IMG/VR virus record: IMGVR_UViG_3300017917_001336
Location: 64,001 to 128,000 of that record
Source of the DNA: a virus
Direction: 5' to 3' (one strand)
Length of the DNA: 64,000 nt
Made by a program: the position numbers and the translations under genes. This document shows, piece by piece, positions 30,134 to 54,118 of this stretch. The notes beneath the pieces were generated by a model. The model worked only from the letters and a program-made list of their open reading frames with translations. It was not told the DNA's origin and made no database searches. Every line of letters starts with the position of its first letter. Within the stretch, counting starts at the first letter, position 1.

Positions 30134-30340
30134 GGGCAAACCTGTAGCTAAGTCTAGTGCGGGATCTACATGTTCTACACTAGAACCAAAACGTATAATA
30201 AACTCTGTTAGTAACGGACCTTCTGGGATCCAAAAACGTGTACGATTTAAGTGCATTTCACTGGCTATACTATGACTCTTGATATAGTTGATAACGTGTA
30301 CAAAGTTTGGATTTTGGGTTAGAATATAATAGTGTCTCAT
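30128..30340 (-). CDS. Hypothetical protein
   Basis: 70 aa ORF; TAAATA upstream. Confidence 0.55.
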   Translation of the reverse strand: MRHYYILTQNPNFVHVINYIKSHSIASEMHLNRTRFWIPEGPLLTEFIIRFGSSVEHVDPALDLATGLPL

Positions 30341-30468
30341 GCTAGAATATTTACTTGTGTGCCCTTGGGACGAGTATTATTATAGAGCCACATGTGATAA
30401 CGATGTAGTGTATTGTAGCTAGTACGATTAGGCGGGGATTGTTTTAAGTATTGAGCAGTTGTCCACAT
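30337..30468 (-). CDS. Small ORF, 43 aa (MWTTAQYLKQ...), not in the ORF track
   Basis: AAGGAGCGAA RBS, TAAATA upstream, stop overlaps the next ATG. Confidence 0.5.
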   Translation of the reverse strand: MWTTAQYLKQSPPNRTSYNTLHRYHMWLYNNTRPKGTQVNILA

Positions 30469-30722
30469 AGTTTCGCTCCTTGTGACAACGTATTTAATGA
30501 TATTTGACTATTGCCCAGAATGGGTCCTGCAGGATAAAAAAATAGCCGCGCAAAAAATTATAGGGAAGTACTTACAGATTCATGATGGTGATTTTGAGTC
30601 TATATGGGGTGTTTTTTTAGGTTGCGCTGTTGCAAAAATGCCACACATTTTATATTATATACCCCGACCCCCCATAAACCGAACCGAGCCCCACCGACCA
30701 CCGAGAGGCCGAACCTGAGACC

Positions 30723-30864
30723 AAAAAAAACCCCTAGGATACCGGGAGCGAATCGGGTTTATACCTAGGGGCACTACAAAGGCCGTTGCCTCGTTGGCGT
30801 CGACCGCTGACAGCTTACCGGGAGCGAATCGTTGGGCTGTCTACTACAGTATGCACTACAGCTC
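30723..30864 (-). ncRNA. Candidate 3'UTR-derived sRNA with two anti-RBS stem-loops and an intrinsic terminator
   Basis: Identical 16-mer CGAUUCGCUCCCGGUA in the loops of stems GACAGC/GCUGUC and CCCCUAGG/CCUAGGGG, then U8. Confidence 0.7.
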
Positions 30865-31770
30865 TTAGCGGCTGTTACGCATACACGTTACTTCTACTAC
30901 GCTACGCCAGTTGCTGGGCATACTAACACGAATGTCCGCAACCTTAAGCACCATACGCAGGCTTAGCTCTCGCATACGCTCTGCATTGTTATTAATGTAG
31001 TCTACTACTTCTTGCTTGTCCTCATCAGTTAGCTTGTAGTCATCGAGCATACCGCACTCGTTAACTACCTGCTTGATACGCAACAGCTTCTCACGGGTAG
31101 TATCAATAGTCAGATCCAAATAGTGACAACGTGACTCCAATGCTTCCAAGTGATCGCGCAGCTTCTTTGACTTAACGTGATCGAACTTGATGTTGCTAAT
31201 AAAGATAGCACCACCGTGGAAGTCGAAACTGTTGGGCACACCTTCTTGTCTAAGCAAACGGCTGTCCGTGTTCCAATGGATAGTACGCTTCTTACCTGAG
31301 TCTAGCGCAGCCTTTAGGATGTTCAAGCTAAGGTCATCTAGCAGTACAGAGTCGCAGTCATCAAACACTAGGATGCATTTACGATCGCTGAACTCGTAGA
31401 GCTTTTTGTACAAGCCAATGGCACTCATTGCGCCCTTGACTACTTCGTATTTCTTCAGCTTGGTATCGTTGGCTACATTAGCAAACACATCATGCTTGCC
31501 CAGTACCCGTTCTACACCAAAGCTCTTACCAACACCCGGAGGGCCAGTTACGATCATAGCACGAACATCACCCTTCTTTACAGCACGGGTCATGTCTTCT
31601 AGAATCTGAAAACGTTGGCCCAAACGTTCCATAATACTTTCATCGGACTCGGCTTTGAGCTGGCGCTCTTTTTCTTTAATATAGTCCTTGTCCTGCTCCA
31701 AGCTGGCTGTAGTGCCTGCTGAGCTCTTTTTACCTTTGGGCATGTCTGCTAGTGTCATTACTTTTGCCAT
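30865..31770 (-). CDS. P-loop AAA-type ATPase
   Basis: GPPGVGKS Walker A, LVFDDCD Walker B, FISN, ALESR. Confidence 0.85.
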   Translation of the reverse strand: MAKVMTLADMPKGKKSSAGTTASLEQDKDYIKEKERQLKAESDESIMERLGQRFQILEDMTRAVKKGDVRAMIVTGPPGVGKSFGVERVLGKHDVFANVANDTKLKKYEVVKGAMSAIGLYKKLYEFSDRKCILVFDDCDSVLLDDLSLNILKAALDSGKKRTIHWNTDSRLLRQEGVPNSFDFHGGAIFISNIKFDHVKSKKLRDHLEALESRCHYLDLTIDTTREKLLRIKQVVNECGMLDDYKLTDEDKQEVVDYINNNAERMRELSLRMVLKVADIRVSMPSNWRSVVEVTCMRNSR

Positions 31771-31824
31771 GTGTGTTCGCTCCTTTATTTAAAACATCTA
31801 GTATACTATCGAATGCAGTCTTGG

Positions 31825-31983
31825 TCAACTCTTTTGAAACACGCTTTGCACATAGCACTCGGAGCCATATTGGGCTTCTACTAGTGCTCGAGCCTGTTGC
31901 GGATGGTTGGCCTGAACCACTTGGGTAATGTTTCTCAGTTGGGTGTCGCCACCCACTGAGAATGTAACTTCATACATGTTCAT
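31825..31983 (-). CDS. Small hypothetical protein, 52 aa (not in track)
   Basis: ATG overlaps the stop of the upstream ORF; open frame. Confidence 0.5.
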   Translation of the reverse strand: MNMYEVTFSVGGDTQLRNITQVVQANHPQQARALVEAQYGSECYVQSVFQKS

Positions 31984-32324: not shown

Positions 32325-32496
32325 GGTTCGCTCCTTGCTGTGTTGTTTAAGTATGTATTATACTATTTCAGGGCCGGGTTGTCAACCGTTTGATTCCGGT
32401 ATTTTTGGACTAGACCTTCTGCGGCCATTGCGATGCAGAGTATAGCAAGGAATGCCCAAAGCTCGATGGTCATATAAAATGCGTTGATTACTTCGT

Positions 32497-32829: not shown

Positions 32830-32891
32830 ATTCGCTCCTTTGTTTAACTTATGCTGCTAGTATAGCAAATTTGGGCTAGGCTGTCAACCAA

Positions 32892-33119: not shown

Positions 33120-33203
33120 TGTATCGCTCCTTGTTAGTATGTGTACATTATAGCAAGGAACAGCCAAACTGTCAACCGTTTGGTTGTTGTATTTTTACAA
33201 CAG

Positions 33204-33280
33204 TGGCCTGCCCGGAGGGAATCGAACCCCCAACCTACGGCTTAGAAGGCCGTTGCTCTATCCGGTTGAGCTACGGGCAG
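33204..33280 (-). tRNA. tRNA-Arg (UCU)
   Basis: Cloverleaf: CTGCCCG acceptor, anticodon loop CTTCTAA, GGTTCGATTCC T-arm, encoded CCA. Confidence 0.95.
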
Positions 33281-33285
33281 ATGAA

Positions 33286-33363
<78 letters not shown>

Positions 33364-33731: not shown

Positions 33732-34097
33732 TTAGAAAGGTGCGTCTTCTGCGTCTGCAGGAACAGCAGCCTTAGCCTTAGTCTTTGACTGTGCCTTAGC
33801 AGGAGCCTTCGCAGGTGCTGCCTTAGCTTTAGGAGCTTTGGGTGCCTTAGGAGCCTTGTCTTCCAAGTACTCCGCAATCGCTGACTGTGCAGCGGCGTCC
33901 TGGAACTCGTCCATAGACTGAAGCTGTTTGACAGCCTCATACTTCGAAACAGCTTCGTCGAGCTCAGCAAGACGAATGTCTTCGTGGCCATGTTTAGCCA
34001 GTACTTTGATACGCATAATATCAGTTGCAAAGCGCACCTTGTACTCGCCATTGAGTTTCGAAACGCCAACGATGTTAAAAGTTTTATCTGTAGCCAT
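33732..34097 (-). CDS. Hypothetical protein with Lys/Ala/Pro-rich histone-like tail
   Basis: AGAGG RBS, own promoter; KAPKAPKAPKAKAAPAKAPAK tail. Confidence 0.75.
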   Translation of the reverse strand: MATDKTFNIVGVSKLNGEYKVRFATDIMRIKVLAKHGHEDIRLAELDEAVSKYEAVKQLQSMDEFQDAAAQSAIAEYLEDKAPKAPKAPKAKAAPAKAPAKAQSKTKAKAAVPADAEDAPF

Positions 34098-35122: not shown

Positions 35123-35140
35123 AGTTCGCTCCTATGTTGT

Positions 35141-35404: not shown

Positions 35405-35450
35405 TTTCGCTCCTGTTTATTTACTATAACTCTATTGTAAGCTCAAATGA

Positions 35451-36558: not shown

Positions 36559-36614
36559 TTGTTTCGCTCCTGTGTGTGTTTAAGCCTTAATTATACAACC
36601 TTTTGGGTCCGCTG

Positions 36615-36851: not shown

Positions 36852-36869
36852 CGCTCGCTCCTTGTTGAT

Positions 36870-37064
36870 TAATCTGTTGGGGAACTCCGGACTAGCCGCT
36901 AGCACCGTCTGCTAGATCGTCTGCCTTCGTCATTACCGCCTACCTTCTCCGCCGCTTCTCCGAGCTTACGCCCTGTTTCATGTGCTTAGATTGAGCGTGA
37001 CCGTCGCCACTGTCCTAACCCTCTAAGCACCTAACGGTGTAGGTAACCCCTAATTCCTTACTAT
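36870..37064 (-). ncRNA. Candidate structured ncRNA or long 5' leader
   Basis: Consensus promoter upstream; nested helices; no credible ORF. Confidence 0.5.
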
Positions 37065-37067
37065 GTG

Positions 37068-37325
37068 TTAATTATAAGCCCAAACCTCAACCTTGTCAAC
37101 CTCTGCAATAACCCTACTGCCTGTATGGGTAATGTAAACTTTAGTACTATCTGTACCGCCTTCAACTAGGAAGACAGCCATGTAGACGAATTGCCCACCG
37201 TTGCTTATGCCCAGGAACTTGCACGAGCTGAACGCAGGGCCCTTATAGCCATTCTCGCGGGCTAGGCTGTTGAGCGTAGGCCCATTGTAGGAGATAAGAG
37301 TTTTTAGTGTCTCTGGGGTAATCAT
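37068..37325 (-). CDS. Hypothetical protein
   Basis: GAGGAG RBS. Confidence 0.65.
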   Translation of the reverse strand: MITPETLKTLISYNGPTLNSLARENGYKGPAFSSCKFLGISNGGQFVYMAVFLVEGGTDSTKVYITHTGSRVIAEVDKVEVWAYN

Positions 37326-37791: not shown

Positions 37792-37847
37792 AGTTTCGCT
37801 CCTTTTGTTTAACTTAGCCTATAGTATAGCACCGAGGGCCCAAACTG

Positions 37848-38250: not shown

Positions 38251-38328
38251 AGTGTCGCTCCTTGCTGTTTAAGTGTTTTAATTATAGCGCACATAGCCCA
38301 ATCTGTCAACCATGTGCGCTTGTGTTAA

Positions 38329-38661: not shown

Positions 38662-38727
38662 TTTTCGCTCCTTCTAATTACAGTACAGCTAGTATAGCAC
38701 AGCTAGCCTAGCTGTGCTGTGCTTACA

Positions 38728-39051: not shown

Positions 39052-39134
39052 ACATCGCTCCTTTTGCTACTTAAAAAACAATTATAGCACAGCAAGCCCA
39101 AAATGTCAACTTGCTGTGCTAATAACCCTACAGT

Positions 39135-39365: not shown

Positions 39366-39413
39366 ACACGCTCCTTCTAAGTGTTTGTATTATAGCGCAG
39401 CTAGCCCAAAATG

Positions 39414-39653: not shown

Positions 39654-39883
39654 CTTTGTTCCTTTTAAAAATGTATTATAGCACACTTTGGACCCGCTGT
39701 CAACAACCCTAACGACCGTAGGGTCTCTCATGATCCATTGACGCCTAACCCAAAAGGCAGTATAATACATGTATTCGAACAAAGGGGGGTGGACGTCGAG
39801 GCTGGGCGTCAGTTTCTGAGCCTGAAATAAGAAAAAGTGTGGCATCTGCGCCACACTCTAGAATACCCTGGTTGACAGCAGGG

Positions 39884-40425: not shown

Positions 40426-40504
40426 TTCACGCTCCTTTTTGTCTAAGTGTTTCTATTATATGCTCAAACGCACCCGCTGTCAACCTACTAAGCAGCGGGG
40501 CCTA

Positions 40505-41209: not shown

Positions 41210-41265
41210 GTTCGCTCCATGTTCGTTTAAGTTAGCCTATAGTATAGCAAGAATTAATAACCCTG

Positions 41266-41589
41266 TCAACCGTCGGTGTATTGGTCGTTGAGCGAGGGTT
41301 GATGCTGCTTGACCCATGCCCGTTCCCAAGCATAAGCTTCAGCCCGCCCACGTATGACAGCCAGTACTTCGTGTTCCCAGTCTGTCCAAGCACCAGCACG
41401 GATATATTCGTATACAGTCCACGCCTGCTGTTCGTGACGAGCCCGGCTAATATGCTTACGCCAACGCTCTGCCACTGCCTTAGGTACTGTACGGGTGCCC
41501 TTACGGGTCAAGCCCACGTATACATTGCCTTCATGCATAGCAGCGTAGATAACATAGTTTGAATCTTTACGAGCAGTTCTTTTTGTCAT
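41266..41589 (-). CDS. GIY-YIG-like nuclease, probably leaderless
   Basis: YVIY...YVGLT...RW.KH...E; -10 box 6 nt before ATG 41589. Confidence 0.65.
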   Translation of the reverse strand: MTKRTARKDSNYVIYAAMHEGNVYVGLTRKGTRTVPKAVAERWRKHISRARHEQQAWTVYEYIRAGAWTDWEHEVLAVIRGRAEAYAWERAWVKQHQPSLNDQYTDG

Positions 41590-41901
41590 AGTCGTATTAT
41601 AGCATTCCGAGCCCAAACTGTCAACCACAATAACCCTACAGCTGACTCGGGTATTTTTGCCCCGAGTTGACAGCCTGCCCAAAATGCAGTATAATTTGGG
41701 CATAGGTTCGAACAGCTACACTGGGGATGGACGGCGAGGGTGCGCAGGTGATTCTAAGTTAGTAAGTGCCAACTTAGCCCGTGGTTAAAATACAACAAAC
41801 TAGAAAAACCCGGTTGACAAAACGGGTTTTTGGGCTGGGTGTCTCGGCCCGGCCGAGACCGTCTCGGCCCCTTTTTCTCAAAAACCATTCCGAACCGCCG
41901 C

Positions 41902-53845: not shown

Positions 53846-54118
53846 ATGAAATTTTTTAATCCAGAAACTAAGACTTACAAAGTGTTTAACGCATTGTATA
53901 ATGGCGATGCTCTAACCCAATCACAAGCTGAAAAGCGTTTTGGTGTTAAGAACCTAGGTGCCGAAGTTAGCCGTATCCGTCACAATGGTTACGCTGTTTA
54001 TGCAAACACACGTAAGGCAGGTAACGGTGTTCAAGTTACTGAGTATGTTATGGGTAAGCCAAGCCGTGAAATCGTTGCTCTAGGCTACAAAGCTAAGGCA
54101 ATGGGTATCACTCTTTAA
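53846..54118 (+). CDS. Winged-helix DNA-binding protein
   Basis: LTQSQAEKRFGV.NL.AEVSRIR..GY pattern; GAGG RBS; terminator follows. Confidence 0.65.
   Translation: MKFFNPETKTYKVFNALYNGDALTQSQAEKRFGVKNLGAEVSRIRHNGYAVYANTRKAGNGVQVTEYVMGKPSREIVALGYKAKAMGITL

Follow-up and report, generated by a model that had tools for sequence, protein, structure and literature searches.

A conserved RNA element with anti-RBS loops and a co-varying ribosome-binding-site tag in uncultured giant phages: a candidate regulator of early and lysis-related genes

Introduction

Early shut-off and the timing of lysis in lytic phages are known mostly through proteins, among them RegB, RegA and the antiholins. In Staphylococcus aureus, RNAIII and RsaE carry repeated C-rich loops that occlude the Shine-Dalgarno (SD) sequences of several mRNAs, and the loops of the C4 RNA of phages P1 and P7 reportedly pair with sites at a phage ribosome-binding site (RBS). 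C4 is an antisense RNA that acts in immunity control (PMC8198154). The cuckoo or CcsR1-4 sRNAs of the Alphaproteobacteria (RSs0680, alpha-r14) are built of 2-4 hairpins whose stems vary while a single C/U-rich, anti-SD-like loop stays invariant; the CcsR RNAs are processed from a 3' UTR by RNase E and end in a terminator (PMC4615179, PMC8034643). RegB of phage T4 selects early phage mRNAs, its own included, through GGAG and the bases downstream of it, and inactivates them (PMC3014915). Finally, the Pseudomonas phage PA5oct, a large myophage, has sigma70 early cassettes, and non-coding RNAs are abundant in its early region (PMC7318152).

Here we describe an RNA element found in a window of 64,000 nt of viral DNA (positions 64,001 to 128,000 of IMG/VR record IMGVR_UViG_3300017917_001336). 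Judged by its conservation, it is a real RNA element; it lies in the 3' UTR of an early ATPase mRNA, and its loops are complementary to an extended SD sequence, the tag, that precedes many of the phage's own genes. By sequence comparison the element works like cuckoo/CcsR, RNAIII and P1 C4, yet it is a member of none of these families, because the loop-motif and Rfam tests fail: (i) As in the cuckoo/CcsR RNAs, adjacent hairpins with variable stems present identical loops, and the location in a 3' UTR is likewise shared, with no internal promoter for a separate sRNA found in the window or in 90 relatives. However, the cuckoo loop CCUCCUCCC is a generic anti-SD that the phage loop does not match; the phage loop is predicted to read a private extension of the SD, changes along with it and has its targets among the genes of the phage itself. 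The Rfam search gave only two tRNAs, and no match to the element up to E=5. (ii) Like C4, it is a phage RNA whose loops face RBS sites and whose specificity varies among related phages, whereas C4 controls one operon (icd-ant) within a temperate immunity circuit; the phage element has 15-25 candidate targets, which lie in separate early cassettes and late envelope genes and not in an icd-ant immunity operon, and the module moves between 3' UTRs. The Rfam model of C4 does not match the element. (iii) RNAIII and RsaE belong to bacteria and regulate host genes whose SDs are ordinary; unlike the phage element, they have no dedicated barcode. (iv) RegB is parallel in purpose, but it is a protein nuclease that spares late mRNAs, whereas here an RNA would read the site, and the tagged genes include late holin-like ones. 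(v) The early region and terminal repeat of PA5oct share neither the tag nor the anti-tag loops, and there is no UTR behind its ATPase; PA5oct is not a ready model. As for the general class of trans-acting, SD-occluding sRNAs, the element has a predicted single-stranded seed complementary to the target RBSs, and both seed and targets are conserved and co-vary, loosely in the clade with GGAGCA tags. Cultured phages gave no DNA match to the element, and no description of it was found in the literature searched.

Results

The window comes from a single-contig assembly of 147,567 nt that is 40% complete. Its nearest cultured relatives are the Pseudomonas phages PA5oct and Paride (terminase 55%), and near-complete uncultured relatives measure 345-356 kb. 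On the minus strand, from 30.3 to 41.7 kb of the window, lies an early island of short genes behind near-perfect sigma70 promoters. The ATPase gene is its last cassette, and the RNA element is the 3' UTR of this gene (Table 1). The island also holds tRNA-Arg(TCT) and tRNA-Met(CAT) (33204-33363, -) and is headed by an untagged, leaderless GIY-YIG nuclease gene (41266-41703, -) with a perfect sigma70 promoter; strong sigma70 promoters oppose its direction at 41667-41695 (+) and 39738-39766 (+), with no clear gene behind them.

Table 1. Features of the RNA element, its gene contexts and the tagged genes, in window coordinates
Feature	Position	Strand	Remarks
ATPase 3' UTR RNA	30723..30864	-	small hairpin, loop hairpin 1, middle hairpin, loop hairpin 2 (intrinsic terminator)
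Hairpin 1	30809..30841	-	variable outer stem, internal loop, 2-bp mini stem, 9-nt anti-tag loop (16-mer 30816-30831)
Middle hairpin	30781..30805	-	without anti-tag loop; found in some relatives
Hairpin 2	30723..30771	-	identical anti-tag loop (30740-30755), then U8; also serves as terminator
AAA ATPase gene	30865..31770	-	phrog_1250, T4 nrdC.10-like; itself tagged; its mRNA carries the element
Promoter of ATPase mRNA	31800..31828	-	sigma70-type; sole promoter found for the RNA
HTH_39 winged-helix gene	53846..54118	+	phrog_4973, untagged; 3' UTR with loop hairpin in other clades, absent here
Small basic protein gene	33732..34094	-	untagged; 3' UTR with loop hairpin in other clades, absent here
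TAAATA motif	30491..30496	-	late-type promoter motif preceding the 30472 tag
Tag	30472..30479	-	43-aa ORF (30337-30468), 3' of the RNA, past the terminator
Tag	31776..31783	-	ATPase gene; cis pairing with loop 1 in full-mRNA fold
Tag	32327..32334	-	first gene behind sigma70 promoter
Tag	32831..32838	-	first gene behind sigma70 promoter; best loop duplex, -15.5 kcal/mol
Tag	33125..33130	-	first gene behind sigma70 promoter
Tag	35125..35132	-	second cistron
Tag	35406..35413	-	first gene behind sigma70 promoter
Tag	36563..36570	-	first gene behind sigma70 promoter
Tag	36856..36861	-	ends a purine-rich untranslated leader of about 210 nt, perfect sigma70 promoter (36855-37099)
Tag	37795..37802	-	first gene behind sigma70 promoter
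Tag	38256..38261	-	first gene behind sigma70 promoter
Tag	38664..38671	-	upstream promoter search: none at least 10/12
Tag	39056..39061	-	first gene behind sigma70 promoter
Tag	39369..39374	-	first gene behind sigma70 promoter
Tag	40430..40435	-	first gene behind sigma70 promoter
Tag	41211..41218	-	GP88-family gene, first behind sigma70 promoter

The two stems, the U8, the identical 16-mer in both loops and the UGUAGU ahead of each hairpin, which an initial annotation made from the letters alone had described, are all in place, and UGUAGU is not generally kept among relatives. The anti-tag loop is AUUCGCUCC in this phage and of the GCCCUC or UAGCUCC type in other clades; folding of the isolated UTR predicts the loops to be unpaired at p 0.76-1.0. 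Because the fold of the whole UTR beats shuffles only modestly (z -1.64), the evidence for structure is covariation. Among 23 aligned copies of hairpin 1, 98.1% of the cells are paired, as against 22-38% in slid controls; every one of the seven outer pairs varies on both sides, cells with double changes number 53 vs 15.6 in shuffled alignments, and the mini stem below the loop covaries too, in five forms. The loop is kept in 90/90 distinct relatives, whose ATPases are 67-90% identical. At least two copies, spaced 35-86 nt apart, are present in 83 of these 90, a U-tract ends the element in 85, and the ATPase is tagged in 82. Past the ATPase stop of four contigs (L011, L018, L019 and L020), a hairpin pairing a GGAG-containing arm with a GCUCC-like arm replaces the first loop hairpin.

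The sequence GGAGCGAA occurs 12 times in the window, compared with 0.91 +/- 0.93 times in shuffles, and the count over the whole assembly (147,567 nt), which the initial annotation had proposed, returned only those 12: ten minus-strand RBSs and the two loop complements. All 16 of the GGAGCG sites that it had listed stand 3-7 nt ahead of an ATG. CG follows GGAG in 15 of the 22 GGAG-led island genes but in 1 of 42 others (Fisher p=1.5e-8), and this lone non-island case (60020) sits upstream of the TAAATA promoter motif of its gene and is therefore probably outside that leader. The computed duplexes between loop and tagged leader, predicted to span the SD, reach -11 to -15.5 kcal/mol, and the standard 16S tail about -8 kcal/mol on most leaders. 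Behind 12 of the 16 strong sigma70 promoters the tag lies 8-16 nt past the start, in short A/C-rich leaders; the leader of about 210 nt listed in Table 1 folds no better than shuffles (z -0.26). The tag, then, marks mainly the first gene behind each sigma70 promoter (12/16), and about half of the called island ORFs (14/29) are without it, so the earlier proposal that the RNA silences the whole early island lacks support in that form. The idea of a barcoded RBS read by a loop RNA survives in its central part, the complementarity to the RBSs of the early cassettes, but the tag is not confined to early genes, since holin-like and CsgF-like late genes of relatives bear it. The remark that core-gene RBSs are mostly ordinary likewise lacks support in its original form: the core genes of this phage do use ordinary SDs, but the late holin-like and envelope genes of relatives are tagged. 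The site at 30472, which had been counted among the island tags, exists, but lies downstream of the RNA and under a TAAATA late-type motif. A homolog of the 43-aa ORF behind it was absent from the fetched loci.

Across related phages the RBS tag and the loop do change together, a check that the initial annotation had put forward. The comparison covered 99 ATPase clusters below 90% identity, with loop calls made automatically and then corrected by inspection, and with a quick tree. GGAGC tags went with GCUCC-type loops in 40/40 detected cases, and AGGGC tags with GCCCUC loops in 8/8 (Fisher 2.7e-9 for 40/40 vs 8/8). The AGGGC group is one clade on the tree, and the strongest tag/loop switch is therefore a single evolutionary event, although it altered about ten RBSs along with two or three loops. 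Calls of UUGCUCC loops were confined to phages with GGAGCA tags (3/8 vs 0/32); several GGAGCA phages retain CGCUCC loops, so that only five bases match there. The ATPase RBS of a distant clade matches the loop in its own UTR more closely than it matches other loops (mean 7.4 vs 6.1 bp; permutation p 0.0005 and 0.0009, 13 rows), and in a 182-kb record from this clade seven matching tags lie on one strand, vs 0 in the control. As to relatives that would keep the RBS without the loops, almost all tagged relatives have loops, and the four tagged contigs with no visible loop (L069, L076, L188 and L237) are partial.

The ATPase is not essential as the gene that carries the RNA. Other clades have the same hairpin on its own, between the stop codon and the terminator of a gene for an HTH_39 winged-helix protein or for a small basic protein (for the latter, as encoded here, a family was searched and none matched). 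Across clades the hairpin thus follows three different genes, which shows the module moving from one 3' UTR to another; each time CUCC is on the mRNA strand, ahead of a U-tract. Among the loop-bearing winged-helix and basic-protein mRNAs the tag is absent in 43/43, and their loop must therefore pair in trans with other mRNAs. That loop and tag pair in trans is a well supported prediction, which we hold with high confidence.

Scanning for the loop 16-mer also turned up the exact complement, in the leaders of late TAAATA genes. These full-complement late leaders number 58 distinct cases, spread over 13 protein families with CsgF-like and DUF4337 proteins among them, and in 38/58 the complement runs on by CC past the search pattern. 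Four of five large genomes have one full-complement locus besides the loops, and in one of these four the locus has two sites 40 nt apart; in a 280-kb record both loops and a full-complement late leader occur together. GGAGCG is present in 46/64 holin-like (GTA_holin_3TM) leaders and in 20/56 CsgF-like leaders, both sets having been fetched by protein and not by tag; among the remaining CsgF-like leaders are GGAGCA and GGAGCUAGAC variants. As the queries were taken from tagged phages, common ancestry contributes to these counts, yet the rest of the leader has diverged. The late holin-like and envelope genes were not found in the 40%-complete assembly studied here. Pseudoknot-free cofolding, in which the loop pairing of early leaders is not modelled, gave -13.3 kcal/mol for a late full-complement leader vs 0 to -1.3 kcal/mol for early leaders, whose duplexes of 6-9 bp brought no net gain; the duplex of late leader and loop is predicted to reach the start codon. 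Raw counts of gapped-pattern matches were near chance and were excluded as evidence. Two late leaders of one genome (G007) carry a short GAGGGCA tag, and a scan of late leaders for GAGGGC gave mostly chance matches and an ErpA-like family, for which no tie to the GCCCUC clade emerged. Such ErpA/IscA-like genes, under TAAATA and with a conserved GAGGGCAATC leader, occur in about ten phage contigs (L438, L452, L455, L465, L466 and others). Some late leaders (L278:3996, L328:12473, L274, L340 and L360) have, close to the 5' end, an extended complement to the loop and, further on, a second tag in RBS position, and could bind both loops.

Discussion

Sequence comparison establishes the structure of the element, its complementarity to the tag, the co-variation of tag and loop, the arrangement in trans and the make-up of the tagged set, namely the first genes of the early cassettes and, in relatives, late holin-like and envelope genes. 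The best explanation, which we consider probable though well short of certain, is an anti-RBS RNA in the 3' UTR of an early mRNA that would repress by SD occlusion; one RNA would thus probably control a whole set of the phage's own genes. The private tag would consist of the SD core and 2-5 bases unread by the 16S tail, and the exposed loops would pair with it in trans. The RNA would accumulate either as the whole mRNA or as a processed, terminator-protected fragment, outcompete the 30S subunit (about -14 vs about -8 kcal/mol), shut the early cassettes, its own ATPase included, and restrain lysis and envelope proteins. As an early promoter makes the RNA, this shut-off of early cassettes would be a negative feedback. 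More speculatively, the late full-complement leader (loop plus closing stem), present once per genome, might bind the RNA tightly and so lift the block late; we put this release forward tentatively. The wider picture, of an RNA-only developmental clock common to a large group of aquatic giant phages, in which a movable 3' UTR hairpin that recognises a lineage-specific RBS barcode would switch off early host-takeover genes and hold back holin and envelope proteins until a late sponge permits lysis, is less likely than not. Late genes bearing the tag sit awkwardly with a simple repressor.

Loops that occlude the SD repress in the known systems (RNAIII, P1 C4), and this counts against the first alternative, that pairing between RNA and tag activates or stabilises the mRNA, with the tag marking high-output genes; the RNA might protect GGAG against a RegB-like nuclease, for instance, or serve as a private adaptor. 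Strong early cassettes and late genes are indeed both tagged, and the loop is like the 16S tail at 7/10 positions. However, the SD itself lies within the duplex, which in late leaders extends to the start codon; we regard activation as unlikely, even with the precedent that T4 RegB cuts GGAG in early RBSs and that structure blocks it (PMC3014915). A second possibility is that repression acts mainly between genomes or states, silencing the early genes and lysis genes of a tag-matched superinfecting relative or holding the phage silent in a carrier state, with tags diverging like immunity groups. The clade-specific pairs of tag and loop would suit this, as would the targets, which are sigma70-driven takeover genes and holins, and the role of the P1 C4 antisense RNA in immunity control (PMC8198154); but the tags are common to very wide clades (90/90), which leaves little strain-level specificity, and we think such a main role quite improbable.

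The tag could also be a protein-binding site, a CsrA-type GGA-loop hairpin on the tag strand, with the element acting on the opposite strand or as a protein decoy. Late full-complement leaders can form a small GGA-loop hairpin, and in a subclade (3/90 relatives in the conservation set) an antisense TAAATA motif is aimed into loop 1. Against this, CUCC lies on the mRNA strand before a U-tract in the three gene contexts, and G-U pairs favour the CUCC strand: read on it, the six inner pairs of the outer stem include five G-U and zero mismatches. A broader count of G-U against A-C by strand, at 9 vs 3 (p=0.15), fell short of significance. Base-exact co-variation, too, is better explained by pairing, and a protein site is very unlikely. 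Less probable still is a purely cis arrangement, in which the ATPase mRNA folds its 3' loop onto the RBS of the same transcript and the remaining tags came along when promoter-RBS cassettes were duplicated. The full ATPase mRNA is predicted to pair loop 1 with its own tag at p ~1, leaving loop 2 free, and distant ATPases match their own loops; yet the 43/43 untagged mRNAs with loops, and the persistence of tags in unrelated late leaders that have otherwise diverged, speak against it. Finally, that the host 16S tail itself pairs with GGAGCG and the loops are incidental, a possibility raised by the initial annotation, can be dismissed with near certainty: although many genomes lack a 16S 3' end, none of 185,579 species genomes had one with GCUCC after the conserved flank, the sole pattern match was not rRNA and an altered tail was rejected, while core genes use ordinary SDs and the loops would be left unexplained.

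With repression by SD occlusion as the favoured reading, the comparative evidence points to an abundant uncultured group of giant phages that uses an RNA to read a barcode in its own RBSs, at early and lysis-related genes. Natural pairs of tag and loop are ready compensatory controls, and the mechanism is testable in E. coli reporters without phage culture. The tag would predict regulon membership for many unknown genes, and orthogonal pairs of tag and loop could become translation switches.

Several further observations concern the surroundings of the element. Directly past its terminator, the non-coding stretch 30500-30715 keeps its sequence in many relatives (a G-run, an inverted repeat and AT-rich blocks) and marks the island edge; it may be a DNA site, such as the end of a terminal repeat or an origin. 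Two near-complete records (G021 and G023; L050 and L044) both start inside the tagged island, and the far end of G023 has further tagged genes, which is consistent with a terminal repeat or circular permutation. In the assembly studied here (G000), many late genes are without an SD and have TAAATA at most about 15 nt from the ATG. An antisense TAAATA motif lies just 3' of loop 1, inside the element, in eleven contigs (L089, L112, L113, L116, L120, L128, L139, L175, L280, L308 and L010) and is a possible cis-encoded late anti-RNA. In PA5oct, the abundant ncRNA002 (L408:21951-22401) has several hairpins with AUGCUU recurring in or near the loops, a motif different from that of the system described here.
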